NCBI GenBank assembly: GCA_001567515.1
Contig: LLEV01000006.1
Span: forward strand, 69,039 to 133,038
Reading direction: 5' to 3'
DNA from: Microgenomates bacterium OLB22
GTDB lineage: Bacteria > Patescibacteriota > Microgenomatia > UBA1406 > HO2-37-13b
Length of the DNA stretch: 64,000 nt
The notes under the pieces were generated by a model. The model did no database searches and was not told the DNA's origin. It saw only the letters and a program-made list of their open reading frames with translations. Positions 2,919 through 48,986 of this stretch are shown piece after piece. Position 1 is the first letter of the stretch; every line of letters begins with the position of its first letter. The translations under genes and the position numbers were made by a program.

Positions 2919-2964
2919 AGGCCTATTCGTATCCTGCCTTTACACTCGTTTTATCATCCATATT

Positions 2965-3088
2965 TCAGAACTGGAGCTCCGCAGTTACAGTTCGTAGAAC
3001 CTCACTCCAGTGGGCCCCCTGGCATATTGCATGCCACACCCCACTTGCGTTTGGTAACGAACTGTACACTACTTTCGCTAGGTTCTGA
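2965..3088 (+). repeat. Family-1 structured repeat, copy 1 (candidate ncRNA or MITE-like element)
   Basis: The element is closed by TCAGAAC...GTTCTGA. It contains a 9-bp long-range helix (2987-2995 with 3057-3065) and the hairpin TGGCAT-ATTGC-ATGCCA (3020-3036). Homologous copies lie at 7072-7221 and 10938-11088. Confidence 0.85.
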
Positions 3089-3103
3089 AAAATAGATGAC
3101 TGG

Positions 3104-6997: not shown

Positions 6998-7071
6998 CTA
7001 AGAAACAAAACCCTGACGTCTTATTCGTTTCATTTAAGTCCCTTTTTAAGTGAAGTAATTACATTTTTGTT

Positions 7072-7221
7072 CCCACCCTATTTGTCAGAACTGGAGCTTC
7101 GCGGTTACAGTTCGTAAAGCCTCACTGCGCCAGGGATCCCTGGCATATGGCATGCCACACCCTAGCTGCGTTTGGCAACGCACTGTATACTACTTTCGCT
7201 AGGTTCTGAAAATAGGGTGGG
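7072..7221 (+). repeat. Family-1 structured repeat, copy 2
   Basis: Extended terminal stem CCCACCCTATTTGTCAGAAC / GTTCTGAAAATAGGGTGGG, inner helix 7107-7115 with 7178-7186, and hairpin CCAGGG-AT-CCCTGG. Confidence 0.85.
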
Positions 7222-7249
7222 AGATGCTAAAACTTTTGACTTTCACCTT

Positions 7250-9388: not shown

Positions 9389-10714
9389 ATGTCTGTCCAA
9401 AAGGTCCCACCACAAGATGAACTAGCTGAACGCTCTGTCCTGGGAGCTATCTTGATTGATCCCGCCTCGCTTTCCACAGTCTTAGAGATAGTACTCCCCG
9501 AAGCCTTTTACTTTGAGCGCAACCGGAGCATCTTTAGTGCGATGCTCGGGCTTTATGAGAAGCATCAGCCTGTTGACATAATTACGCTCACAGCTGAGCT
9601 AAAGCTTCTGGGACTCTTGGACAAGGTAGGGGATACGAGTTATCTCTCGGAGCTTATTGACACGGTGCCTACGTCTGCATATGTAGAGCATTATGCCAAG
9701 ATCGTGAAGGCACAGTATATCAAGAGAAGTCTTATCAATTCGGCCTCTCGGATAGTTGAGGAGTCATTTCAAGATGACGCAGACATCACTGAGCTCCTCA
9801 ACCATGCTGAGTCGACTATATTTGGGCTATCACAACAGTATGTACATCGAAATTTTATAGATCTTCGCAGTATCCTTTCAGATAGTTTTGCCCGTCTGGA
9901 AGATCTAGTAAAGCACGGCAGTGGACTTCGTGGAGTCCCTACAGGGTTTGCAGACCTTGATGCCAAACTTGCTGGCTTTCAACAGTCTAACCTCATCATC
10001 TTGGCAGCACGTCCAGGCGTGGGGAAGACTACTCTAGCACTTAATATGGCACTTCACGCAGCTCTAAAAGAAAAAAGTGCCCATTGGATTTTTTCACTCG
10101 AAATGAGCAAGGAGGAGCTAGTAGATAGGATACTTGTGGGGCAAGCTGATATTGATGCTTGGCGACTCAAGACAGGAAAACTCTCAGACGATGACTATGA
10201 GCGGATCACTGATGCTATGGGGGAGCTTACAGAAGCCCCAATATACATAGATGATACTCCAGGGGCACCTATGCTCGAGATGATGACAAAGGCTCGTAAG
10301 CTAAAGCTCGAGAAGGGCCTTGGGTTGGTGATCGTTGATTATCTTCAGCTAATTGCCCCCGGTAAAAAGTTTGAGAGCCGTGTGCAGGAGGTTTCATTTG
10401 TATCTCAACAACTAAAAAATATGGCTCGTGAGCTACGTATCCCCGTCATAGCTTTGTCTCAACTATCACGTGCTATCGAACATCGTGGGGAGAAGAGACC
10501 GCAACTTGCTGATCTGCGCGAGTCGGGCTCAATCGAGCAGGATGCAGACGTAGTGATCTTTATCTATAAAGAAAAAGAGGATGAAGATCTTGTAGTCGAT
10601 AGCTCAAAGGCTTCCGCAAAGCTCTATATTGCCAAACACAGAAATGGTGCAATAGGAGAGATTGATCTTATGTTCCGAGGTGATAGAGTGAAGTTCTATG
10701 GAGTGGAGAGATAA
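9389..10714 (+). CDS. dnaB: Replicative DNA helicase DnaB
   Basis: N-terminal 'ERSVLGAILID', Walker A 'ARPGVGKTT', 'FSLEMS', 'VIVDYLQL', 'SQLSRAIE' and 'DLRESGSIEQDAD'. Confidence 0.92.
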   Translation: MSVQKVPPQDELAERSVLGAILIDPASLSTVLEIVLPEAFYFERNRSIFSAMLGLYEKHQPVDIITLTAELKLLGLLDKVGDTSYLSELIDTVPTSAYVEHYAKIVKAQYIKRSLINSASRIVEESFQDDADITELLNHAESTIFGLSQQYVHRNFIDLRSILSDSFARLEDLVKHGSGLRGVPTGFADLDAKLAGFQQSNLIILAARPGVGKTTLALNMALHAALKEKSAHWIFSLEMSKEELVDRILVGQADIDAWRLKTGKLSDDDYERITDAMGELTEAPIYIDDTPGAPMLEMMTKARKLKLEKGLGLVIVDYLQLIAPGKKFESRVQEVSFVSQQLKNMARELRIPVIALSQLSRAIEHRGEKRPQLADLRESGSIEQDADVVIFIYKEKEDEDLVVDSSKASAKLYIAKHRNGAIGEIDLMFRGDRVKFYGVER

Positions 10715-10937
10715 AAATCGAGCTATTGCTAAAGGATCGTTGCAATCGATTTGATCAGTGCAATTCGGTAAAATGAAAGATGAATTAATGCAAGAAAAGT
10801 CTCTTGTCGTCCTTAACTTGCTGCGCCCTGCATAGCCCTATGGGCGACGTAGGAAATAGGCTCTAGAAGCAAAATCTAGGAGACCTTCTCTCATTCACCC
10901 TATTAGACTTACATATTCGTAGCATTACATTTTTGTT

Positions 10938-11088
10938 CCCACCTTATTTATCAGAACTGGAGCTTCGCAGTAACAGCTTGTAGTACCAGACTCGGGTGGG
11001 GCCTCTGGCATATTGCATGCTACGCCCCACTTGCGTTTGGCAACACGCTGTAAACTTCTTTCGCTAGGTTCTGAAAATAGGTTGGGGG
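10938..11088 (+). repeat. Family-1 structured repeat, copy 3
   Basis: Same architecture as copies 1 and 2. The inner helix 10973-10981 with 11043-11051 carries two compensatory base-pair changes relative to copy 1. The ATGCTA arm pairs through G-U. Confidence 0.85.
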
Positions 11089-11105
11089 ATGAGAGGGTTC
11101 AAGGC

Positions 11106-11133
11106 AAAAAAAGCCGGCAGACTATGCTGCCGG
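11106..11133 (-). terminator. Rho-independent terminator of the MIF-like gene
   Basis: Read on the minus strand: stem CCGGCAG/CTGCCGG followed by T7. The stop codon (11122-11124) lies in the loop. Confidence 0.6.
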
Positions 11134-11517
11134 AGGTAGGTCTGATGGTGCGCAGATCATCTTCCCACCGAACCAAAATGACGTGCCAGGTGGCATATCG
11201 AAAAATGTGATGTCGAGATTTGTTTGTAGTCCGTAATCACTCAGGAAGGTCTCGATCAGATTGCCTAGTGCTTTCTTCTGCTCGACAGATCTACCCGCAT
11301 TCCATAAGATAAACACATGGAGCCCATGGCTTTTATCTTTTGTTCCATCTTGTTTGAATACCATCCAGGTCCCCGGAATCAAGTGAAGCTCGACATCAGC
11401 GGCTTGAGTACCTGAAACTTCAGCCACCTCTTCATAGAATTTGGCTATCCAACCAGCATCTCGACCAAGATAGGTGCATTCTGACTCAGGAATATTTCCA
11501 ACAAATATGCAAGGCAT
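11122..11517 (-). CDS. Tautomerase-superfamily protein, MIF/D-dopachrome tautomerase-like
   Basis: From the internal Met the protein starts 'MPCIFVGNIP' (Pro-1 hallmark). 'LHLIPGTWMVFKQDG' and 'LDITFFDMPPGTSFWFGG' parallel the MIF blocks 'VHVVPDQLMAFGG' and 'VYINYYDMNAANVGWN'. The track ORF start at 11544 is probably too far upstream. Confidence 0.55.
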   Translation of the reverse strand: MPCIFVGNIPESECTYLGRDAGWIAKFYEEVAEVSGTQAADVELHLIPGTWMVFKQDGTKDKSHGLHVFILWNAGRSVEQKKALGNLIETFLSDYGLQTNLDITFFDMPPGTSFWFGGKMICAPSDLPPAA

Positions 11518-11636
11518 TTCAAGCTCCTTTACGATGAGAGTCAATGTGCTGAAGGGAAGTATACTACTGAAAAGTCAAAACTCAAAGATCAATCCACCAG
11601 CTGGCAGATCAAAACCGAGATTAGACTTAAAAACCT

Positions 11637-11734
11637 GTCATCCTCGGACTGCTGGAGCAGAGCGACCGCAGATCCGGGGATCCAGGCTTTGTTGCTATCA
11701 TGTTTTCTGGATTCCCGCCTACGCGGGAATGACA
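11637..11734. repeat. 'TGTCATCC...GGAATGACA' palindromic intergenic element (about 98 nt)
   Basis: Inverted termini, internal hairpins CCTCGG...CCGGGG and ATTCCCGC-CTAC-GCGGGAAT (11711-11730), and a shared GATCCAG core with the element at 53113-53206. It generates the spurious peptide 'WIPAYAGMT'. Confidence 0.8.
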
Positions 11735-11830
11735 AATCTTTTTTTGTACACCTGGGAGGTGTGCTAAAGGGACACCTAGGGAGGGCATCCTCCTAGGTCG
11801 CGTCATGGTGGGACTCAGGGGTCATGCAAT

Positions 11831-11995
11831 GATCCCAGCTCACCCATGTTCAACTTCACTTCATGCATTACACGCAAGCAAGTGAACGTTTACACGTGCG
11901 GGTTACGTCTCAGTAATTACTCACTCGTGTCCGAATGCTGGCGGATATGAGATTCGTGAACTGTGACCTAAAAAAAAGCCCCGCCGTGGCGGGGC
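11831..11995 (+). repeat. Family-2 repeat, copy A (about 165 nt, candidate sRNA), ending in a terminator hairpin
   Basis: About 80% identical by eye to 47256-47420. Helices 11855-11861/11880-11886 and 11926-11932/11943-11949. The GC hairpin at 11978-11995 is preceded by A8, which is T8 on the minus strand and so terminates gene 12015..12524. Confidence 0.85.
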
Positions 11996-12014
11996 ATATA
12001 TACTCCTCGGACCC

Positions 12015-12524
12015 TTACTTTGGTCCCGACGTAGGAGTTGTAGCAGGAAAGCTTCGTCCGGAGCGTCTGAACTCAGGGAGTTCTAGGACACCAGAAGGAC
12101 TAAAGCCCCCAGCACTATCAATATGAGTAATTAGTGTACGATAGATTATCTCTGGTCCATCCGGGATGTCTCTTAGATCAAATTTCAACGCCATGAGTCG
12201 CTGATTAGGGTCAGCACAAGTCGGGCAAACGAAGCTAAAAGCGACATATCGCTGATCCGGGCTGATAGCGATACTCACACATCCCCAATCGCCTGCATTT
12301 TCGACTCCCATGCGGGGGCCATCATTCCAGAGGAGCAAATCTCCCATGGAGAGATCCTTTTTCTGGGCAAATGTATCGATACAGATATCCTTTATTGCAG
12401 CATCGAGGATCATCCGGGGATCAATGGTGCTCCAATTGACCAGACTAGCTGGATCAACAGTTGCCTCAGGGATGGGGAGCGGCGTAGCCATGGGCTTAGT
12501 CCCATCCTGGATCTTTGTGAGCAC
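12015..12524 (-). CDS. Hypothetical protein (GC-rich orphan)
   Basis: 169-aa ORF in a block with visibly higher GC than the flanks. It is followed by a canonical terminator. I recognise no motif. Confidence 0.5.
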   Translation of the reverse strand: MLTKIQDGTKPMATPLPIPEATVDPASLVNWSTIDPRMILDAAIKDICIDTFAQKKDLSMGDLLLWNDGPRMGVENAGDWGCVSIAISPDQRYVAFSFVCPTCADPNQRLMALKFDLRDIPDGPEIIYRTLITHIDSAGGFSPSGVLELPEFRRSGRSFPATTPTSGPK

Positions 12525-12569
12525 GTGTTCACCTGAGCGCGGATCGCGATTGATGAAAAGATAGTCCCA

Positions 12570-13073
12570 TCAAAGATCAATGATGTACGCCTTGCCAGGG
12601 GTATAGGTGTCGATCGCAAAAAATGGCGATACACTGAGCGCCTTATTCATGATCACAAAGCCCATGCCCTCGGTACGGCGTGCAAAATTCAGTACTGCCA
12701 GTGCTGCCCCTGTAGCCGCAGTGTGCGTTGAGCTACCAAAGCACTCCGAGCCATCAGGCATCTTATTGGCGATGCGGGTTACGACCTCTGCGTTTGCGAT
12801 GAGTGTGTCTTCCATTGACGGATAGCATGCATTTTGAATGCTGATTTCAAAGTCCACCTGTACCGTGTTCTTATCGTCCCTCTTGGGGCGCACTGCCGTT
12901 GGGCGGTCAGGCGCTCGTGTAGGGACAGCAAGAGGAGGTACCAATGTGGAGGCTCCATTCAAAACAGGTGTATTGATCGGTGCAGATTGGGTACCTTCAT
13001 CGATACCACGCTCACATCCGGTCACCAAGAGCGCTGTGACGGCGACTGCTGCGAACTTGAAAAGGGCTCTCAT
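12570..13073 (-). CDS. Putative lipoprotein
   Basis: Signal peptide with lipobox 'LLVTGC'. Overlaps the upstream gene by 4 nt. Confidence 0.6.
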   Translation of the reverse strand: MRALFKFAAVAVTALLVTGCERGIDEGTQSAPINTPVLNGASTLVPPLAVPTRAPDRPTAVRPKRDDKNTVQVDFEISIQNACYPSMEDTLIANAEVVTRIANKMPDGSECFGSSTHTAATGAALAVLNFARRTEGMGFVIMNKALSVSPFFAIDTYTPGKAYIIDL

Positions 13074-13768
13074 GTGTCATGCACTCCATGTTGGCGCGCC
13101 TCATCCTTACTACCGAACCATCTGCCGAGCCCTACTGCCACTGGCGGTACGATTGTCAGGACGAGTAGGGTGACAAAAAATCCAATCCCAAAGGGGGTGG
13201 GGATAGTCAGATGCGTACCTGCCTGAACAGTTGCCCCGAGCCAATTACAAGCACGGATGGCAACATCCGAGCTATTTGTCAATGCAGCGATGGCCGAGAC
13301 CGTGGTATTTACATCAGCCATATATATCTCCCCGAAGCAGAACGACCAACCCGGCCCCGAATACATCTTATGGATTGTCAAAGTGAAGAGGAATACATAG
13401 AGTCCCCAAAATCGTTGTTTATTGATCCATGTACATACGAGCATGGCCAAAAAAAGAAAAACCAAGAACGTGGGCCATAATCTGCTGGGAATCCTGATAG
13501 TTTCAGGCCGATCCCATAATAGGTTTAGATTGCAAAAGCGAATGACAGCAGTTTTGGTGCCTTCTTGCTTTGCCAATTGCTGGATGGTCATTTCTGCTGA
13601 ATATTCAACAGGACGGCCACCGCACCACTGAGCAATGCTGATATCTCTTCTGACCGCAAAGTTCAAGATCAGATAGCAGATAAGGAAAATACCAATAACG
13701 CCAGCCCCAATACGGAAAGGTCTTACATAGAGTTGCATGGCCGCATTAAGATCAATAAAGCGCTGCAT
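13070..13768 (-). CDS. Hypothetical multi-pass membrane protein
   Basis: 232 aa with several hydrophobic helices. First gene of a three-gene minus-strand operon. Confidence 0.5.
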   Translation of the reverse strand: MQRFIDLNAAMQLYVRPFRIGAGVIGIFLICYLILNFAVRRDISIAQWCGGRPVEYSAEMTIQQLAKQEGTKTAVIRFCNLNLLWDRPETIRIPSRLWPTFLVFLFLAMLVCTWINKQRFWGLYVFLFTLTIHKMYSGPGWSFCFGEIYMADVNTTVSAIAALTNSSDVAIRACNWLGATVQAGTHLTIPTPFGIGFFVTLLVLTIVPPVAVGLGRWFGSKDEARQHGVHDT

Positions 13769-13964
13769 AGCTCTCTCCTCTTAGCGTGTAGTAAACGAGT
13801 TCTAAAAGTGCTGGGTGAATTATACTATATCGCAGCTAAAAGGGAAGTATGTATTATTGTAAGAGATAGGTGAAACTCTACAGACTATAAGATCTATCAT
13901 TAGCTTGCATATTGGATAAGGTATGATATACTTGCGGCATATTAGAAATACAATCACAACAGTT

Positions 13965-15521
13965 ATGGAAAGATACGTATACCGCAACCCAGATGACACA
14001 GCGGGAGGAAGTGGCGATGAGTCTACAAAGTCACTAAGACTCCCTAAACGTGAAGAGCCAAAGCCCGCAAGCCTAGCTCTTCGATATATTGACGCCCCTA
14101 AGCCAAGAGGCGTAGATGATGCTGTGCTTCGTCGTTTGGAATCAGCACGTGCCACACTCCAACTAGTCGGAGAAACACGTCTCGGGGCAAATACCGCGAT
14201 ATTCAACTCTGGTGAGCTCGTACAAGCAGTTGACACTATGGTACATAAAGGAGTTATTGAGGCTTTGCAGATAGATCCAGAAGCCTATGAGCTACTATTC
14301 AATCTAGCAACACATGACCCTTTGATCAAAACTGCGTTAGTACGACTTCAAGAGCAGTTGGGTACTTATGATGTCCCTATCATACCCGCTCCTGACCTTG
14401 ATGAGGAAACTCTAAAAGAACAAGTGGGTCGAGTAAAAGGCGATCTTCTTGCAAACAATCCTCTTGTTTTGGCAGCTGCTCAATCATCGGTACATGGCAT
14501 GCTCCATCTCGTCCATCAAGCTGAAGGAATGACACGAGAACAGGCTGAAGAGCTACTTGAAGGTGCACTAGATGCCATAACTGATCTTACTCCGACGCCA
14601 GGGAAAGCAGACTCTTACAAAGGTCCAAAAGGGACCGCGCTGCTTGCTTGGCACAAATTGCGAGGAGGATACCCAGTAGATCACTATGACTTTGGAAGAG
14701 ACACCTTGTTCCCCCCAGAAGTGCTTGAATATGCTCAAGATAATCCACTGTATAGGGCACTTGTTTATAAAATGATAGCAATTTCAGCAGCAGTGATTAG
14801 AAATCAGGAACAGATCGAGCAAGTATCTAAGGCATTAAAGGCTCAAGTCGATGTAGTCTTCAATCCATATGATAAAGCTATAGCCAAAGTTATCGATGCG
14901 TATACAGTTGAGGTGGCATATAAAGAAAGAGACGCTTCGGGTAAAGAAGTGATAGTCAAAAGAAAAGTTCCTCTAGATGTCGCTCTCTCTCATCATGGGG
15001 ACAGAGTATTGGCAGCTCGAAGAGCTCTTGAAGGTCAGGATGCTCAATTGATAAGTGGTCAAGTGATAGATCCTAAAAAAACTAAGGAAATTGGAAGAAG
15101 TTTGAGGGATGCTACTAGTCACAGGCAGAGATTAGCAGAACAAAAGTCGAAGGCTGATGCTAGACTCAGGACCATTATTCTCGGTGAAATGGCAGACACC
15201 AAAGCGCTAGAAGGACAACAGAGCCTACTTGATACTGCCAGACGAGATCTTGGAAATTTGCTTAGAGAGGGACTCTTCACTTCAGTAAGTATGGTGGCTG
15301 TTGGAGCAGAGTTGAATGACGCTTATGTACGACTTCGTACTGCTCGTCAGGCACTCAGTGAGTCTCAGGTACAACAACAGGTCGCCGAAAGTATGCAAAC
15401 AGTCAACCTTCGTATAAAAGGGATGGTAGATGATGCTATGGTACAGACTGAGGAAGCCCAAAGAGCTCGTGAGATTCATGAGCGCGCTCGACGTCAGATC
15501 TCGGCCTCAAGCCAAACATAA
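13965..15521 (+). CDS. Hypothetical, largely alpha-helical/coiled-coil protein
   Basis: Long ORF (track 13923..15521; the first plausible Met is 'MERYVYRNPDD' at 13965). Charged helical C-terminal third. No recognisable family. Confidence 0.5.
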   Translation: MERYVYRNPDDTAGGSGDESTKSLRLPKREEPKPASLALRYIDAPKPRGVDDAVLRRLESARATLQLVGETRLGANTAIFNSGELVQAVDTMVHKGVIEALQIDPEAYELLFNLATHDPLIKTALVRLQEQLGTYDVPIIPAPDLDEETLKEQVGRVKGDLLANNPLVLAAAQSSVHGMLHLVHQAEGMTREQAEELLEGALDAITDLTPTPGKADSYKGPKGTALLAWHKLRGGYPVDHYDFGRDTLFPPEVLEYAQDNPLYRALVYKMIAISAAVIRNQEQIEQVSKALKAQVDVVFNPYDKAIAKVIDAYTVEVAYKERDASGKEVIVKRKVPLDVALSHHGDRVLAARRALEGQDAQLISGQVIDPKKTKEIGRSLRDATSHRQRLAEQKSKADARLRTIILGEMADTKALEGQQSLLDTARRDLGNLLREGLFTSVSMVAVGAELNDAYVRLRTARQALSESQVQQQVAESMQTVNLRIKGMVDDAMVQTEEAQRAREIHERARRQISASSQT

Positions 15522-15530
15522 CCTTAACTT

Positions 15531-16697
15531 ATGTCCAAAGAAAGCGCCATTTTTCAGCTAGAGAAGCAGCTGCGAGAAGGGCGTGGTAGTACAGTGGAAG
15601 AACAATTGCGTCGTAGTGTCGAGGCGGAATTTGATATAACTCCGCGTCTCTCCGAGCGTATTCCCATTACTGATTTTTCTACTAGCTCTACTCCTTTTGC
15701 CCCTACTGAATCACTTTTCGCACTTGAGAGGAGTGGTTCAACCGTAAGAGCCCAGAAGGGGACGATATTCAAACGTCTTGCTCTGGCAGCTGGAGTTGGT
15801 GCAGCCCTCTTTATCGGTTCCGGCTATACTGGTGATACCAACGCAGACGACGGAGCGACTAAAGAACGGATTGTACTCGAGCCACGCGTTATAGGTGACG
15901 GAGAACCCTATGTATATACAAATGATGGCCCTGAGGAGGTGAAAATAGGTCCGACGCCTACTGTTGAATTCCTCGAAAGGGAAGATTCTCCAACACGGAT
16001 AGATATCCCCTGGCTTCCTCGAAACATAGCCTTTTGGAACGCTCTTATCGAAGAGAGATACTCATTTTATGGCATAGATCCTGATCTAGGGGCTCTTATC
16101 CAGCTCATGGAGTCAGGTGGATCTCCTGATGCGGAGAGTGGACAGGCAAGTGGTCTTATGCAGATAGCCCCCGGCACAGCTAGAGGGTTTATTCCACAAC
16201 TCGGTATGTCCAGGACTGACCTTTCCGATCCCGAGGTCAGCGCGACCCTTGGAGCGTGGCATAGCTACACTGATCTCCAGCACGCTGGCATTAGTGATGG
16301 GTCGGACAATAATTCCCCAGACAAAGATACCCACTGGAAGCGCACAGTAGGTCTTGCAGGTGCCTCATATAATGGTGGGAAGGGAGCGGTAGACTACTAC
16401 AAGAGGAATGGACGTTTCCCGGACAATACCCAGACAGGCATCTATCGTGAATTTCTGGAGACAGTCTGGCCACTGCGCCATGATGCGAGTGTGACGTATC
16501 CTAGAATTGAGGTGATCTATAATGAGATCTCGCTGAAATATGGCGTGAATGCCGCATTGAGTTACCTTCAGAAGAAGGCTGTAAAGCAGCTCGATGAGCG
16601 TTATCCAAATTGGCGCACCGAGTCCTATACTCCACTATATAGCACATGTGATATGATCTCCAATCCCGCTATCCTCGCGCTAGGGAAGTGCAAATAG
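15531..16697 (+). CDS. Membrane-anchored lytic transglycosylase (SLT domain)
   Basis: 'LMESGGSPDAESGQASGLMQIAPGTARGF' carries the catalytic E-S and GLMQ motifs of SLT/GH23. One TM segment, 'LALAAGVGAALFIG'. Confidence 0.7.
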   Translation: MSKESAIFQLEKQLREGRGSTVEEQLRRSVEAEFDITPRLSERIPITDFSTSSTPFAPTESLFALERSGSTVRAQKGTIFKRLALAAGVGAALFIGSGYTGDTNADDGATKERIVLEPRVIGDGEPYVYTNDGPEEVKIGPTPTVEFLEREDSPTRIDIPWLPRNIAFWNALIEERYSFYGIDPDLGALIQLMESGGSPDAESGQASGLMQIAPGTARGFIPQLGMSRTDLSDPEVSATLGAWHSYTDLQHAGISDGSDNNSPDKDTHWKRTVGLAGASYNGGKGAVDYYKRNGRFPDNTQTGIYREFLETVWPLRHDASVTYPRIEVIYNEISLKYGVNAALSYLQKKAVKQLDERYPNWRTESYTPLYSTCDMISNPAILALGKCK

Positions 16698-16864
16698 AAC
16701 GTAAAGTCATGTCAAAGATTAAAAAATACAACGTATAACTCTAAATCCGTAGAAAGTTTCTTCATTTCACTTCGCTGCACTCAGAAAGAGGTACCTCCGC
16801 GTTCCAATCTTTAAGTCCATATCTTAGCTTTGATATTTGAGCTTTAAGCATTGATCTGTCTTTG

Positions 16865-16948
16865 TGGCGCGGGTGGGAATCGAACCCACATGATGCAAGC
16901 ATCACAGGTTTTTGAGACCAGCCTGTCTACCAGTTCCAGCACCGCGCC
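16865..16948 (-). tRNA. tRNA-Leu (anticodon CAA), CCA not encoded
   Basis: Hand-folded cloverleaf: acceptor GGCGCGG/CCGCGCC, 3-bp D stem, anticodon loop CTCAAAA, long variable arm, T arm GTGGG-TTCGATT-CCCAC. Confidence 0.9.
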
Positions 16949-17167
16949 AAGGATGAAAAAAGTTCGTAATTTCTAAATCCTAATTTCTAAATTCTAAACA
17001 AATCCCCAACGTAAAATTCAAAGCTTTTCTTGCTTAAATTTATCTTTCCTCGCTCCGATCATATCGATACTTCAGCGATAGAGCGATCTTTTTTCGGTCT
17101 TCATTATACCACCACTGATATACTTTGTGGTCTTTACCCCCTGCTCATTTGCTGGTAGCATCATAGT

Positions 17168-20228: not shown

Positions 20229-21906
20229 ATGCCGCTTTTATGTGGGTATTTTGCGGTGCGATTTAGGTCGCCAACAGTTATTGGCTATATCATCGCTGGC
20301 TTTTTTATAGCCTTACTTAAAGAAGCTGATGTCTCTTCAGTTGTATCTTTCTTTGCTAATTTAGGACTCTTACTGCTGCTTTTTACATTAGGACTCGAAT
20401 TGGACATAACTACTCTGCGTAGACATGGCCGGGTGGTCGTATTAGCGGGCTTATTACAGGTAGGTCTTACTACAGTTGGAACGATATGCCTTTTGGCATT
20501 TTTTAACTTTAATCTCACTACTGCATTGTTACTGGGGTTTGCTTTGTCACTTTCTTCTACAGCGGTTGTGTCCAAGATCATACAGGAGCGAGGAGATGAA
20601 CACACACTACCGGGTCAGCTGGCTATAGGTATCCTCATTCTGCAAGACATAGTTGCAATCCCAGCTATACTTGTGATCTCATCATACAACCCCGATCTAG
20701 CCAAGCCTGATCTCTTCATAGCAGTATCTGCCTCCGTGTTGAAATCGATAGGTATCCTAGGCCTTATGTACGTATTTGGGGAGCGCGTCATCCCACAAGT
20801 CTTTGAAAAACTAGGAAAGGTCTCACGAGAGCTTATGAACTTGTTTACTATTGTATTTATCTTTCTACTTGTAGGGATATTTCGTTATTTAGGTCTTTCT
20901 ACGGGACTAGCTGCATTTTTCTGCAGGACTCTTGATCGGACAAACGGCACAGCACTATCATATCTTTTCCCAGATACGCCCACTACGAGATGTCTTTGTA
21001 ATACTATTTTTTGTCTTCTTAGGGGTAAGTACCAACCTGGGATTATTAGCACATCAGTGGGTGAGCATAGTCATATTTTCCCTCTGCCTGGTACTTCTCA
21101 AGATAGCCATCATGATCGTTGTGCTCACTAAGATGAAATATAACTCTCGTACAGTTTTCTCAGTTGGGCTCTTTTTGTCCCAAGTTGGAGAGTTTGCCTT
21201 TATCTTGTTAAGGGAGGGGCATATGAAAGGGCTTATCTCGGCAGATGCCATGGCATTTGGGACAGGTGTGAGCTTGATGACTCTGTTAATCTCACCGTAT
21301 CTTATTCAGCACCATTTGTTTTTATATAGACACGTACGTAGTATCATAAAAAATCATGTTCCTTTGCTAGAGGAATTCATCGCCTATCGTATTGATAGAG
21401 AGGGGAGTGCCTCTCGAGGTATAGCTACAGCGCATACCGATCATGTGATCTTGTGTGGGTATGGACGGGTAGGGAGCTATGTAGGAAGGGCCCTTACACT
21501 CTCGAATGTGCCGTTTTGTGCTATTGATTACAATCAGCACATAGTACAAAAGGAGAGACAGGCTGGTACGGATATCATATACGGTGATCCAACGAGTGTC
21601 GACATACTCGATATGGCAGGAGTAAAAGAGGCAAAAGCTCTTATCATCGCTCTTCCAGACAATTTTTCTCAAGAACTAGTCTTGCTTTCAGCCAGGAAGA
21701 AAAATCCAAAGATCATGATCTTTGCACGTGTTAGGCAGAAGGATGAGCAGCTGAGGCTAAAGTCACTTGGAGCAGATGTAGTCATCCAACCTGAGTTTGA
21801 GGCGGCACTTTCACTCGTGAAGAAAATTATGCTTGCAAAACATATGAATGCCGAGGATATCCAGGGTAAGATCAAACGCTTAAAAATAGAACATGGTATG
21901 GCCTGA
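20229..21906 (+). pseudogene. Kef-type cation:proton antiporter with C-terminal RCK/TrkA-N domain, frameshifted
   Basis: Transporter TM helices in 20229..21131 continue in 20932..21906 ('AGLLIGQTAQHYHIFSQIRPLRDVF'). Rossmann-like 'HVILCGYGRVGSYVG'. A single extra base at or beside the T5 run 20916-20920 separates the frames. Confidence 0.7.
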
Positions 21907-44232: not shown

Positions 44233-44994
44233 ATGGATACTCCCTATTCTACCCTTTTGCTTTACTCGCTAGCTGGTGTGCTTGGAGTAACCAACATGAT
44301 TCTTTGGGGTGTGTATGCAGATCTACTTGTAGAGACCTTTCACTGGAGAAAGGTATTTCGTAGTTATTTACTGGCTGTGATTTATGCCTTTGTATTGGCT
44401 TTGACTTACCCATCACTAAATCTTGTGATAGTGGCATTGTCGATCATCGGACTCGAGAGGATCAGCACAGAGATCTATAAAGCATTTATCCGTGTAGAAA
44501 ACCAAGATAAATACAAGATACCTTCGCATCTAGGTATTCATTGGCCATCACCGATAAAAAGATGTGTTGGAGTACTTTTACATATTGTCCTCATCTCGAT
44601 CTGGTTCATCCACTTCCCTGCACTATCTATGATAAGCAAGATCATCATAGTTATTTTGACCGGACTAAGTATTGCTCTGGGAGGAATGCTCAAAGACGCA
44701 CCTTATGAGGGGTTCGATGGACTAAAGTTTTGGCGAAGTCCCAGTGTCACTGTATTTGCTGGTGTAGTACTTGGTCTGCTCTTTCCTGACTTGGATCCAC
44801 TGCCCTATGCATTTTCTATCGGTGGGTTAGAGCGTATCATGAGTGAGTGCTATAAAAAGATCCTTACCAGCAAGATCCCTGGAAAGTTTCATGATACTCT
44901 CCCTCGCAACAAGAGTTGGTCAAACAAGAGGAATATCATACTTCCTTTCTATGTCGCTAATCTCTTATCTATCTTGGCTCTCTACTGGATATGA
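44233..44994 (+). CDS. Polytopic membrane protein with internal two-fold repeat
   Basis: 'IGLERISTEIYKAFI' and 'IGGLERIMSECYKKIL' each follow blocks of TM helices. ATGA overlap with the SDR gene. Confidence 0.5.
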   Translation: MDTPYSTLLLYSLAGVLGVTNMILWGVYADLLVETFHWRKVFRSYLLAVIYAFVLALTYPSLNLVIVALSIIGLERISTEIYKAFIRVENQDKYKIPSHLGIHWPSPIKRCVGVLLHIVLISIWFIHFPALSMISKIIIVILTGLSIALGGMLKDAPYEGFDGLKFWRSPSVTVFAGVVLGLLFPDLDPLPYAFSIGGLERIMSECYKKILTSKIPGKFHDTLPRNKSWSNKRNIILPFYVANLLSILALYWI

Positions 44995-45704
44995 AGACTG
45001 TGCTTATAACGGGGGCAAACTCCGGGATCGGTAAGGCATTGGTTATCAAGTACGTGCAAGAGGGATATCAGGTGATCCTCGCCTGTCGTGATGATGATAA
45101 GGCGCGTGATGTAATACATGAGGTGAGAGAGATACACAGTGGGGCTCGTGTTGTGAGTGTCTGCCTTGACCTCAGTTCGTTTGAGAGCGTCAGCAATTGC
45201 ATCATGCAACTGGAGAAGATCGGTATAAAGCCCCAAGTTCTTATCCTCAATGCAGGGATACACATGCCCTATCGGGTCATACTAACGAAAGATAAGCAAG
45301 AGCTACAATATCAGACAAACTTTCTCTCTGCCCTGTTAGTTACACTACGCATGTTGACACAGCCATGTGGTCAGAATATTGAGCAGATTGTGTATGTCAG
45401 CAGCCAAGCCCATCATGTCGCTCGTTTCCCTATCCCAACACTAGTAGGATTTTGGTATCGGTACGCACTGTCAAAGTTTGATGCGACAGCTGCTTTTCTT
45501 ATGTTAGCCAAGAGATATCCACGCCTCGATGTCAGGATACTTTCACCTGGAGGTGTCCTCAGTAATGTCCATAGAAATAAGCCCTGGATATTGCAGCTTA
45601 TGAATAGATATATAGGGAAAAAAAAGTCAGCGCCAAGGATACGGCAGAGTCTTTCTTTGCTATCTGCAACAGTCCGAAAGATAGTAAGGTCTATTGGTAT
45701 CTAG
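44991..45704 (+). CDS. Short-chain dehydrogenase/reductase; native C-terminus lies in another frame after an A8 run
   Basis: 'VLITGANSGIGKA' and 'YALSK'. After 45618-45625 the -1 frame reads 'VSAKDTAESFFAICNSPKDSKVYWYLGKAIAPHPDCLDERNQLAVWNTALKTF', a typical RDH-like SDR tail. Confidence 0.75.
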   Translation: MKTVLITGANSGIGKALVIKYVQEGYQVILACRDDDKARDVIHEVREIHSGARVVSVCLDLSSFESVSNCIMQLEKIGIKPQVLILNAGIHMPYRVILTKDKQELQYQTNFLSALLVTLRMLTQPCGQNIEQIVYVSSQAHHVARFPIPTLVGFWYRYALSKFDATAAFLMLAKRYPRLDVRILSPGGVLSNVHRNKPWILQLMNRYIGKKKSAPRIRQSLSLLSATVRKIVRSIGI

Positions 45705-45751: not shown

Positions 45752-47161
45752 TTGGCTGTTTGGAATACAGCACTCAAGACTTTCGAGAGCTATATGCCTA
45801 GTACACCACTTGAGCATATACAAAACTTCTCAACCAATTTCTCGGGTGTCAGCTATCGGGTAGTATCTCCCAAAACGGTTGCTGAAGTCTGTGAGATAGT
45901 CAAAGAAGCACGGGAGCGAAAAGAACAAGTGCACGTTGTGAGCAAGGCACACTCATACAATGATGTCTTCTTTACTCCACAGCGACTGATTTCACTTGAA
46001 CACTTCAAACACATATCATTTAACAAGCTGGACAAAAGAGTGTCTTGTGGAGCGGGTGTGACTATAGATGAACTCAGTGCCTACTTGGATAGACAGGGCT
46101 TCACATTGCCGTTTGCAGGATCCTATGGTGGCCAGACAGTAGTAGGTGCCCTTTCGACAGGAACACATGGCTACTATCGAGGAGGGGGTGGTCTTGGCGA
46201 GTGCGTGCAAAAAGTAAGCCTAGTAGATGGGCTAGGCAAGGCCCAAATGGTGTCAGATGAAAAAGAGCTATCAGCTTTTCGGTGTAATCTGGGGACATTG
46301 GGCATAATTACACAAATCGAGATGGAAGTCCAAGAAAAAGATGTTGTGAGATATCAGATCGTCTCACTTGGCATAAAAGAGTTCTTCGGTAGATACAAAG
46401 AGTTAGTAGCCATTCATGACCACGTACGGTTTGTGATCAGTCCATTTAGTGAAAAGATAGTCATGGCGGTACTTATCGATCATATCGCATCCGCCAAATG
46501 TCCCCTTACCAAAGGGGCTGCTTATCTATCTGACCGTGATTTCCCCACTTTACTACTTAATCTTTCGCGATGGGTATTTAAACGTAAGATAGTACACGGC
46601 ATAGTCAAACTTGTTCAATCCATTTCCTCTGTTGCGATTGATATCACTGTCCCTTTTTCTAGCTACATCTTTACAAGAAATGGAGTCGTCGCACAAAATA
46701 TCTTCTTGTCTCAGCTGCTTCACGCGGTGTTTAATGACCCTGACTGTCTAAACATGTCTCTCGCTATCGATCCTAGCGAACTTGAGGGCTTTTATGACGT
46801 ATTTTTCGAGCACCGTGATCGATATCCACAACTGACTGATGCAAATTTTTCTATGCGATACATGGGAGGCTCTGACAAGGTACTCTTGGGGACAAATTAC
46901 TTGAAGGACGTGATAGTAGTCGATGTCCAAGTGAGTAAGAAAAATCCTTGTAGCCTCCCCTTCTTAAATGAGCTAGAAGAGAAAGCCGTGTCTAGGTTTC
47001 GGGCTCGCCCGCATTGGGGAAAAGTTTTCTTCAGTGAGAAGAATACTATGGAGAAGGTATGGCCAAGGGAAAGTATCCAGCTTTTCAAAAAAGTTAAGAA
47101 AAAGTATGATCCCGATTGTCTTTTTACGAATCCCTATACTGTGCGGGTATTGGGAATATAG
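45752..47161 (+). CDS. FAD-linked oxidase (FAD_binding_4 + ALO-type C-terminal domain; sugar-lactone oxidase / DprE1-like superfamily)
   Basis: 'GGQTVVGALSTGTHG' and 'ARPHWGKVF'. The first about 14 codons of the track ORF (TTG start) are really the SDR tail. The first ATG is at 45794. Confidence 0.7.
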   Translation: MAVWNTALKTFESYMPSTPLEHIQNFSTNFSGVSYRVVSPKTVAEVCEIVKEARERKEQVHVVSKAHSYNDVFFTPQRLISLEHFKHISFNKLDKRVSCGAGVTIDELSAYLDRQGFTLPFAGSYGGQTVVGALSTGTHGYYRGGGGLGECVQKVSLVDGLGKAQMVSDEKELSAFRCNLGTLGIITQIEMEVQEKDVVRYQIVSLGIKEFFGRYKELVAIHDHVRFVISPFSEKIVMAVLIDHIASAKCPLTKGAAYLSDRDFPTLLLNLSRWVFKRKIVHGIVKLVQSISSVAIDITVPFSSYIFTRNGVVAQNIFLSQLLHAVFNDPDCLNMSLAIDPSELEGFYDVFFEHRDRYPQLTDANFSMRYMGGSDKVLLGTNYLKDVIVVDVQVSKKNPCSLPFLNELEEKAVSRFRARPHWGKVFFSEKNTMEKVWPRESIQLFKKVKKKYDPDCLFTNPYTVRVLGI

Positions 47162-47255
47162 TCGAAGTTCGAGGGATCATTGCTATCGACTTTTGATCAT
47201 TTTGATGTACATCGTCAATCTGGCATGATGAATTAAGGCAAGTCACTGCCCTCCT

Positions 47256-47420
47256 GATCCCGACCCGCCTATGTTCAACTTCACTTCATGCGTTACACGC
47301 AAGCAAGTGAACGTTTACAAGGACGGATTACGTCTCAGTAATTACTCACTCATGTCCGAAGGCTAGCAGACATGAGATACATAAACTGTGACGTAAAAAA
47401 ACCCCCGCTGGGGCGGGGGG
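47256..47420 (+). repeat. Family-2 repeat, copy B, ending in a terminator hairpin
   Basis: Homologous to 11831-11995. Helix 47351-47356 with 47369-47374. Hairpin CCCCCGC-TGGG-GCGGGGG is preceded by A7, which gives a minus-strand terminator for 47478..47822. Confidence 0.85.
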
Positions 47421-47477: not shown

Positions 47478-47822
47478 CTATGTCGTTGTCCTACTAGCCT
47501 TATAGGTCATCATGACCCCATATCGCTCATTCACGCTTCGCACGAGCGTGCATGGCACAAATCCATCCGGCACAGCATCCCCTTCAGGCAAAATCAGTTC
47601 GCCCTCCAGGTTGCCGTAGGGCATTCTACCCCCTATTGTCCGAGCTTCATACATATCCATGGCTCTCAGTATGGGGCCAAAGGCCTCTCTGGCCATTGTG
47701 GTCTTTACAGGACTTGCGTGCCCCTGCAAGACGTACTCGACTCGGTAGGCGCTTGTCCCTAGCATTTTACAGCCTTTCACGGTTGCAACCGATACCATCC
47801 AGACAGATGGCTTTCTGAGCAC
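47478..47822 (-). CDS. Hypothetical protein (GC-rich orphan)
   Basis: 114-aa ORF with several overlapping alternative-frame ORFs, a high-GC signature. A terminator lies downstream. The start is uncertain. Confidence 0.4.
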   Translation of the reverse strand: MLRKPSVWMVSVATVKGCKMLGTSAYRVEYVLQGHASPVKTTMAREAFGPILRAMDMYEARTIGGRMPYGNLEGELILPEGDAVPDGFVPCTLVRSVNERYGVMMTYKASRTTT

Positions 47823-47959: not shown

Positions 47960-48010
47960 CTATAGGATCCTGCTCCTTAATGGAAAGTATAAGTAGGCTA
48001 TAGGATCCTG
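47960..48010. promoter_or_regulatory. Two copies of CTATAGGATCCTG (47960-47972, 47998-48010) within a larger dyad, upstream of the recombinase gene
   Basis: Exact 13-nt direct repeat, each copy containing the palindrome AGGATCCT. The outer arms TTTCCTAT / ATAGGAAA are inverted. Confidence 0.35.
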
Positions 48011-48040
48011 TCAATAGGAAAATTATGCTATGCTTAGAGC

Positions 48041-48986
48041 ATGGAACTCAAAGAAGCTATGCTCCGTTTCCTCGAATACTGTGAGCTTGATAAGAATCTA
48101 TCTCCGAAAACGGTGAAGATGTATGGCTACTACCTCAACTTTTTTTTTGACTGGGTCATAAAGCAACCTAGTTTTAAAGGAAAGGAAGTCCAGGTCACTC
48201 AGCTAGACGACGAGACGGTCCGCGAATTTCGACTCTACCTATCACGTAACTATATAAATCCGTACAAAGGTGAGCTAAAGCGCCAGACGCAAAACTATTT
48301 TCTTGTGGCGCTGCGATCATTTCTTCGTTTTCTAGTGAAAAAAAAGCATAAAGTCCTCTCTCCTGAGGAGATAGATCTGGGTAAGACCGAAGAGCGACAG
48401 ATAACATTCCTTAAGGAAGATGAAATACGTAAGCTTATTGATGGCCCTGATGACACAGAGATCATGGGGGCACGCGATAAGGCCATCTTAGAACTTCTTT
48501 TTTCGACAGGTCTGCGTGTGTCAGAACTAGTCTCCCTTAACAGAGATCAGGTAAATCTAAAGGATGGTGAGTTCTCAGTCCGTGGTAAAGGACGTAAACT
48601 TCGTGTGGTATTCCTCACTGAAAGTGCCAAACGCGCGGTATCCTACTATATAAGGATGCGTGAAGATGCATACAAACCGCTTTTTATACGCTACTCAGGG
48701 CCCAAACCAAAGCAAGAGACAGATGAGGCATATCGGCTCACCCCAAGGTCTGTCGAACGCATGATCGAAAAGTATCGTAAGGAAGTAGGTATTACTTTTG
48801 CCATAGGACCTCATGCATTGCGGCACAGTTTTGCTACAGACTTACTCAAACATGGCGCAGACCTACGTTCGGTACAGGAGATGCTGGGTCATAAAAAATC
48901 TGGCTACAACACAGATCTATACACATGTGACTGACCTTGGGCTCAAAGAGGTGCATAAGAGGTTTCATTCGGGAAACAAGGAATGA
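48041..48986 (+). pseudogene. Tyrosine recombinase XerC/XerD-like, frameshifted before the catalytic Tyr
   Basis: 'ARDKAILELLFSTGLRVSEL' and 'HALRHSFATDLL..GADLRSVQEMLGH' are recombinase boxes. After the A6 run at 48893-48898 the +1 frame reads '[13 protein letters not shown]...' with a stop at 48984-48986. The annotated frame ends at 48934 without that motif. Confidence 0.75.

Follow-up and report, generated by a model that had tools for sequence, protein, structure and literature searches.

A 165-nt intergenic repeat with a predicted minus-strand terminator in Microgenomates bacterium OLB22

Introduction

Within a 64-kb stretch of the Microgenomates bacterium OLB22 genome (64,000 nt, hereafter the window) two intergenic sites carry the same sequence, and both times this sequence adjoins the end of a minus-strand gene. 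An earlier note had described the repeat and had offered two explanations, a plus-strand small RNA (sRNA) convergent with the neighboring genes or a conserved boundary of acquired DNA. The locus raises the question of what kind of unit is repeated here, on which strand it would act and why it is found at these two gene ends. A search of the literature on OLB22 yielded nothing relevant.

Extent and conservation of the repeat

We aligned the two copies together with 100 nt of flanking sequence on either side. Copy A and copy B are co-linear on the same strand and identical in 141 of 166 alignment columns (86%). The differences comprise 15 transitions, 8 transversions and two single-base indels, which offset each other so that both copies measure 165 nt, in agreement with the equal length claimed by the earlier note. 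The match was recovered by blastn of the window against itself (E 1.7e-48), which detected two repeat families in the 64 kb, this one and a second termed D1. A search with nhmmer and a covariance model, filters off, found exactly two copies of the 165-nt repeat in the window. Similarity starts abruptly at TGATCCC (11830 and 47255) and ends with the last base of a GC hairpin (11995 and 47420); the flanks of the two copies are unrelated on both sides, giving the unit sharp boundaries. Coordinates of all features are listed in Table 1.

Conservation is unevenly distributed along the repeat. The copies share identical runs of 27, 24 and 21 nt, exactly the blocks that had been quoted as the shared core. 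Were the differences placed at random, a third-longest run of 21 nt or more would have P = 0.004, and a combined length of the three longest runs as great as the observed one P = 0.02. Such clustering speaks for a degree of constraint on the repeat. Identity between the copies is about 93% over the 80 nt at the plus-strand 5' end and about 80% over the 70 nt at the 3' end. With 50–51% the GC content of the repeat is close to that of the adjoining ORFs (50–53%) and not to that of the window (44.6%). Judged by its sequence, the repeat is a genuine, conserved, sharply bounded and non-coding unit.

The repeat could be a neutral relic, left by a duplication or gene conversion long ago and with no present function but the terminator described below. 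Two copies, no homologues and peripheral helices that differ between the copies would fit such an origin. We regard such a relic as improbable given the sharp boundaries between unrelated flanks, the clustering of conservation beyond chance and the 86% identity that was kept while all surrounding sequence was replaced.

Table 1. Features of the two repeat copies and of the adjoining genes in the window.
Feature	Position	Strand	Remarks
Copy A, whole unit	11830..11995		86% identity to 47255-47420
Hairpin 1, copy A	11847..11894		17 pairs including TTCACTT/AAGTGAA; predicted fold
Domain 2, copy A	11907..11967		outer stem GTC.CAGT/ACTG.GAC, large internal loop, apical helix
A8 tract, copy A	11970..11977		U8 terminator tail when read on the minus strand
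GC hairpin, copy A	11978..11995	-	7 G-C pairs, tetraloop; with T8 run an intrinsic terminator (predicted)
Three-gene operon ending at copy A	12015..13768	-	genes 13070-13768, 12570-13073, 12015-12524
Copy B, whole unit	47255..47420		alignment, self-blast, nhmmer, covariance model
Hairpin 1, copy B	47272..47319		predicted fold
Domain 2, copy B	47332..47392		12-nt outer stem TTACGTCTCAGT/ACTGTGACGTAA, apical helix CTCATGTC/GACATGAG
A7 tract and GC hairpin, copy B	47395..47419	-	intrinsic terminator (predicted)
114-aa ORFan ending at copy B	47478..47822	-	self-match only
Sigma-70-like promoter, strong	47986..48014	-	TTGACA-17-TATACT, 11/12; reads towards ORFan and copy B terminator
Xer-type tyrosine recombinase gene	48041..48986	+	620 nt from copy B; divergent from ORFan

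The GC hairpin as a predicted minus-strand terminator

At both copies a GC-rich stem-loop with a T-run is predicted just after the stop codon on the strand of the gene, as is characteristic of intrinsic terminators. The hairpin lies 19 nt past the stop of ORF 12015-12524 at copy A and 58 nt past the stop of ORF 47478-47822 at copy B. The minus-strand orientation that the earlier note had assigned to these putative terminators is borne out by the hairpin and the T8 or T7 run. The same note had described the two hairpins as different. We found instead that they are homologous, with 14 of 18 positions identical and a compensatory swap from G-C to C-G at the stem-closing pair, which makes the hairpin a part of the repeat, while the adjoining minus-strand ORFs are unrelated to each other.

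Canonical hairpins with a T-run within 120 nt of the stop codon were detected at 3 of 59 gene ends in the window. Two of the three are the repeat copies, so the terminator belongs to the element and is not the general style of gene ends; the third belongs to gene 11122-11544 and lies beside copy D1c of the other repeat family. All three are located on the minus strand and adjoin repeat elements, and their rarity marks them as a peculiarity of the repeat-bearing segments. Read on the plus strand, the GC hairpin has CATATATAC (copy A) or GATGGCTCT (copy B) after it instead of a T-run, so there is no intrinsic terminator in that orientation.

The 7-pair all-G-C stem, the tetraloop, the U7–8 tail and the distance of 19–58 nt from the stop codon are as in known intrinsic (Rho-independent) terminators. 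Unlike these, the hairpin forms one end of a 165-nt repeat, with about 140 nt of conserved structured sequence downstream. Termination on the minus strand is the only role of the repeat that its sequence supports.

Predicted fold and strand signals

In the predicted fold both copies are built in the same way: hairpin 1 is followed by domain 2, a run of 7–8 A and the GC hairpin. The TTCACTT/AAGTGAA helix pointed out in the earlier note is present and forms part of hairpin 1, in which 17 of 17 pairs are invariant between the copies and the sole difference is one apical base. The second helix described there pairs CUCGUGUCCG with CGGAUAUGAG in copy A, with two G-U pairs, and CUCAUGUC with GACAUGAG in copy B. 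In the internal loop of domain 2 the 5' strand, which contains a perfect 10-bp palindrome (AGTAATTACT), is conserved between the copies, and the 3' strand is variable.

Such a layout could represent two sibling sRNA genes on the plus strand, convergent with the neighboring genes, each with two stem-loop domains, exposed conserved loops (AUUACACGC and GUAAUUACUCA) and a 3' end guarded by the GC hairpin. This is the main rival to the reading that we prefer, and we consider it possible but doubtful. Folding of the core on the plus strand surpasses that of dinucleotide shuffles in both copies (z -3.4 for copy A, -5.8 for copy B), while on the minus strand copy A reaches only -1.3 and copy B -5.9. 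In copy A the apical helix of domain 2 contains two G-U pairs on the plus strand, which would be A.C if read on the minus strand. The conserved 5' and varying 3' strand of the internal loop and the absence of a coding signal from the unit are likewise consistent with an RNA. When substitutions were mapped to a consensus fold, 17 of 23 fell in unpaired columns and all six in paired columns kept pairing; since the consensus was built from these same two sequences, this argument is circular.

Other observations speak against the sRNA genes. At the apex of hairpin 1 copy A has an A.C on the plus strand and a G.U on the minus strand, which is the opposite strand signal. Mapping the substitutions of one copy on the minimum-energy fold of the other broke 5–6 pairs and kept 3–8; broken and kept pairs are thus about equal, whichever strand is read. 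Covariation between only two sequences amounted to 2 compensatory and 2 one-sided changes, a score that 128 of 500 shuffles reached. As the G-U signals conflict and two sequences have no covariation power, they decide neither on the structure nor on the strand. The two plus-strand G-U pairs of the second helix in copy A stand as described, but with the hairpin-1 apex the strand evidence does not all point one way.

Searches for relatives, promoters and coding capacity

At the gathering threshold Rfam models matched four tRNAs in the whole window and nothing else. With E values of up to 10 both copies gave sub-threshold matches of the terminator hairpin, the best reaching 22 bits against a gathering score of 49.5; a HEARO-type match was absent. 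Exact searches with three conserved blocks, among them 20–27-mers of blocks 2 and 3, gave no match in GTDB genomes, JGI metagenomes or IMG/VR, nor did a gapped pattern for the arms of hairpin 1 in viral, GTDB genome and JGI metagenome collections, and blastn against phages and plasmids matched the terminator hairpin only. The element was absent from 15 loci of relatives when searched with nhmmer and the covariance model R1. The matches there were one of 69 nt and 20 bits (locus L010), spread over the whole 164-position model, and further weak, terminator-like ones. The nearest public relatives are distant: the best non-self oxidase is 48% identical and DnaB 65%. Further copies or homologues, whose absence the earlier note had named among the findings that would refute its reading, were thus found in none of the collections searched, and the window contains the two copies only. 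The repeat is an unclassified, two-copy, single-genome member of a familiar class, that of structured intergenic repeats or terminator modules.

Promoter-like sites were searched for with a sigma-70-type pattern. Neither strand of copy A or of the sequence upstream of it contains such a site, even when the threshold is lowered to 8/12 matching positions. Upstream of copy B there are weak sites only (8/12), and no promoter is conserved between the copies on either strand. Because the U-tail lies on the opposite strand, a plus-strand RNA of the repeat would also be without a canonical terminator. These results, together with the lack of a homologue in the searched collections, weigh against the sRNA genes. 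What remains of the plus-strand sRNA proposed earlier is the predicted folding (z -3.4 to -5.8) and the two G-U pairs; it is weakened by the missing copy A promoter, the missing plus-strand T-run and a third position with the opposite strand signal.

Sibling and island sRNAs such as OmrA/B, Qrr and the Salmonella Isr RNAs provide a parallel, inasmuch as they share with the repeat two paralogous copies (86% identical here) in accessory regions, a conserved 5' part followed by a more variable 3' part, and stem-loops ending in a GC hairpin. The OLB22 repeat differs from them by having no recognisable promoter. In a target prediction against translation starts the adjacent ORFs ranked 1st and 3rd for a minus-strand RNA, but the duplexes were long and imperfect, and a start-region motif that seemed to be shared did not extend on alignment. 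The palindrome AGTAATTACT was considered as a dispersed operator; it has 6 matches with at most one mismatch versus 2.6 expected, and as 3 of 100 shuffles reach 6 we did not find this convincing.

The plus strand of both copies contains an ATG-initiated ORF of 31–34 aa (MFNFTSC[IV]TRKQVNVY...) in the same frame. That it represents a small protein gene is extremely unlikely: a Shine-Dalgarno sequence is absent, the codon scores are -0.32 and -0.11 compared with 0.08–0.25 for real genes, just one of the nine differences within the ORF is a synonymous third-position change, and copy B stops earlier.

Comparison with mobile intergenic repeats

Two dispersed copies of equal size with sharp boundaries and unrelated flanks are also what a small non-autonomous mobile element would leave behind, either MITE-like or derived from the end of an IS, that inserted at two sites and carried the terminator by chance. 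The unit contains many internal palindromes, and the second family of the window, D1, is of similar size and has a long terminal stem. We nevertheless consider insertion of such an element quite improbable, as terminal inverted repeats are absent (the scan returned internal hairpins only), no target-site duplication is recognisable, the 64 kb hold two copies only and the collections searched gave no match. Pfam identified no transposase, TnpB/IscB, IS110-type or reverse-transcriptase gene among the ORFs scanned. Likewise, for a TnpB (IS200/605), IscB or IS110 guide/bridge RNA or a retron ncRNA the same Pfam scan found no adjacent effector, recombinase or reverse transcriptase.

Among the known repeats ERIC/IRU of enterobacteria, bcr1 of the Bacillus cereus group and the Correia elements of Neisseria come closest. 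They are intergenic, 100–170 nt long, located by gene ends, form strong predicted hairpins and influence transcript ends, which for the OLB22 repeat is a prediction. Members of these families number in the tens to hundreds and usually carry terminal inverted repeats. The OLB22 repeat, in contrast, is known from two copies and lacks such repeats at its ends. The differences between copy A and copy B are not adenine-specific, which led us to dismiss template and variable repeats of a diversity-generating retroelement.

The copy A locus

The operon that ends at copy A has host-like codon scores (0.11–0.16). Its three genes had no matches in Pfam, PHROG, NCBIfam or PADLOC, and the product of 12570-13073 carries a lipoprotein-type signal. 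Database homologues within the operon were searched for 12015-12524 alone; its 169-aa product, compared exhaustively with 1.8 billion cluster representatives, matched only itself, apart from weak repeat-level matches. A nearby 532-aa product matches itself alone in 5.8 billion proteins.

Copy A is contained in a 6.1-kb lineage-specific block (10715-16863) that extends from dnaB to the 3' end of tRNA-Leu(CAA), the latter located at 16864-16948 on the minus strand. The genes of the block mostly lack a family match, and the two of its products that were searched have no orthologues. One of them encodes an SLT-domain transglycosylase (15531-16697) and gave only weak lysis/transglycosylase PHROG matches; neither this protein nor that of 13923-15521 has a relative in viral collections. 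The closest relative (L002) likewise has MBL-hydrolase and DnaB and, further on, minus-strand tRNA-Leu(CAA) and the CBS protein in this order; from DnaB to the tRNA there are 1.75 kb with unrelated genes, versus 6.1 kb in OLB22. The block thus resembles a tRNA-associated island in lying beside a tRNA 3' end, being absent from the relative and having conserved flanks. It contains no integrase, and no direct repeat of the tRNA 3' end was found at the far boundary. Copy A is situated inside this variable block and not at its edge, and neither att-type direct repeats nor terminal inverted repeats nor a mobility gene were found with it.

Several smaller features were noted in this region. An inverted repeat of about 80 nt (10710-10800 / 17024-17110) brackets the variable block from DnaB to CBS including tRNA-Leu(CAA); its 25-nt core matches at 22 of 25 positions, with none expected from shuffles. 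A 19-nt stretch at 11626-11644 resembles, in opposite orientation, the anticodon arm of tRNA-Leu(CAA), with 16 matching positions (about 0.1 such matches expected by chance). We rejected this as a tRNA-Leu remnant, the match being marginal and wrongly oriented and no tRNA being detected there. A hairpin at 11709-11728 (ATTCCCGC-CTAC-GCGGGAAT) is followed by a plus-strand T-run and partially matches the hairpin of the Francisella sRNA FtrB, below the Rfam threshold.

The copy B locus

The 114-aa product of the ORF ending at copy B has no match other than itself (P0028) among 5.8 billion proteins. The codon score of the ORF (0.090) lies near the bottom of the range of the training genes, and overlapping plus-strand ORFs score negative. 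With the strong promoter at one end and the copy B terminator at the other, the ORFan forms a self-contained unit. A 13-nt exact direct repeat, CTATAGGATCCTG, is found around the -35 region of this promoter (47960-47972 and 47998-48010, spacing 38 nt) and may be a regulator site. With the only relative available for this region (L001) synteny reaches as far as the stop codon of the oxidase and breaks off 95 nt short of copy B. The SDR (44991-45704) and FAD-oxidase (45752-47161) are separate ORFs, which are fused (about 730 aa) in most other homologues found.

On the other side of the promoter lies a divergent recombinase gene, whose product scores 202.5 bits with XerC, 191.8 bits with XerD and 88.9 bits with integrase_gron, where the cutoff is 265. 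The gene is apparently frameshifted towards its 3' end, in an A6 run near 48895, with the catalytic-tyrosine motif LATTQIYTHV in another frame (ORF 48813-48986); the frameshift could be an assembly error or indicate a pseudogene.

The succession of recombinase on the plus strand, promoter and ORFan on the minus strand and a structured 165-nt site recalls integrons, and the repeat could be the folded-DNA recombination site of an integron-like cassette system. At the ORF-distal end the minus strand reads GTTGAAC, which fits GTTRRRY. We hold this to be very unlikely, as the scores place the recombinase with XerC/XerD rather than with integron integrases, the repeat has three hairpins and not a single imperfect one, and the complementary RYYYAAC box is absent at the ORF-proximal end. 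In addition, copy A follows three ORFs and has neither recombinase nor array. Phage morons and integron gene cassettes are self-contained accessory units with a conserved 3' element. The copy B unit is like them in consisting of promoter, ORFan and terminator, in having a GC content above its surroundings and in standing beside a divergent tyrosine recombinase gene. It departs from them in having a recombinase of the Xer type instead of IntI, a site that does not resemble attC, no array and, in the window, no phage context. An equally remote proposal is that the unit is the recognition or recombination site of a new cassette-type gene-capture system in candidate-phyla-radiation bacteria, which would consist of Xer-like tyrosine recombinase, divergent promoter, ORFan and folded 165-nt site, or a new class of structured RNA on such cassettes. 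We also looked for a dif-like Xer site and found none, and GGATCC-type motifs, considered as a recombinase site, were not enriched.

A possible 3' module of accessory gene blocks

The two loci have in common that the repeat stands next to genes of restricted distribution. The minus-strand ORFs adjoining the copies had no Pfam, PHROG, NCBIfam or PADLOC matches, and orthologues are absent for all three neighbor products searched (114, 532 and 169 aa). Host-like codon usage indicates that the neighbor ORFs are probably real genes. The description of the adjoining genes as GC-rich orphans is accurate with respect to orphan status, the 114-aa product matching itself only and the 169-aa product itself plus weak repeat-level matches; their GC content is above that of the window, though only modestly (50.2% and 53.3% vs 44.6%).

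We favor, with a probability of roughly 0.4, the explanation that accessory gene blocks, which were probably acquired, share the repeat as a non-coding module at their 3' end, restricted to this lineage. The module joins a strong predicted minus-strand terminator (GC hairpin and U7–8) to about 140 nt that are predicted to form two hairpin domains. Each copy directly follows the last minus-strand gene of a unit without detectable orthologues and provides the only canonical terminator signal of that unit. Presumably the module came in together with DNA that was gained horizontally or otherwise turns over fast, or else marks where such DNA ends. It could, for instance, be what is left of the end of a mobile element or gene cassette, and may have been kept because it terminates and insulates two otherwise unrelated accessory blocks. 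The stronger conservation of the terminator-distal half suggests a second function for this part, e.g. as a recognition site or RNA. The module and the sRNA genes are not mutually exclusive, since a small RNA could be encoded within an accessory block.

Several findings count against acquisition of the module. Terminal inverted repeats, att-like direct repeats and a dif-like site were not found, no integrase or transposase gene lies near copy A, the rest of the window has none but one Xer-type gene, and the element has no relative in viral or plasmid collections. The neighbor ORFs are host-like in codon usage and their excess in GC is modest. The proposed boundary of acquired DNA is in keeping with the position of both copies in lineage-specific orphan regions at synteny breaks and with their being two of the three terminators, the breaks being weak evidence since the nearest relatives are distant (48–65% protein identity). 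It does not agree with copy A, which is internal to its block and lacks att repeats, inverted repeats and a mobility gene. A single 35-kb island between the copies was rejected, since the stretch that separates them carries tRNAs and housekeeping genes, with Lgt, glycerol kinase, an MFS transporter and TGT encoded there.

If the module travels with acquired genes, it would offer a rare handle on the uptake and insulation of foreign DNA in the ultra-small genomes of the candidate phyla radiation, and would account for canonical terminators appearing only there. If the copies instead encode a pair of plus-strand RNAs, these would be among very few candidate regulatory RNAs of this bacterial group. 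At present the repeat is a two-copy observation in a single genome and of modest interest.

Other features of the window

Family D1 has copies at 2960-3091, 7058-7226 and 10924-11091, all intergenic, about 130–170 nt long and 82–86% identical. They possess a terminal inverted stem of about 20 nt (CCCACCCTATTT.TCAGAAC ... GTTCTGAAAATAGG.TGGGGG) and have no Rfam match; the window's third canonical terminator adjoins copy D1c. Elsewhere in the window a Na+/H+ exchanger is split over two overlapping ORFs, 20229-21131 with the N-terminal part of the domain and 20932-21906 with the C-terminal part and TrkA_N, which suggests a frameshift or an assembly error.
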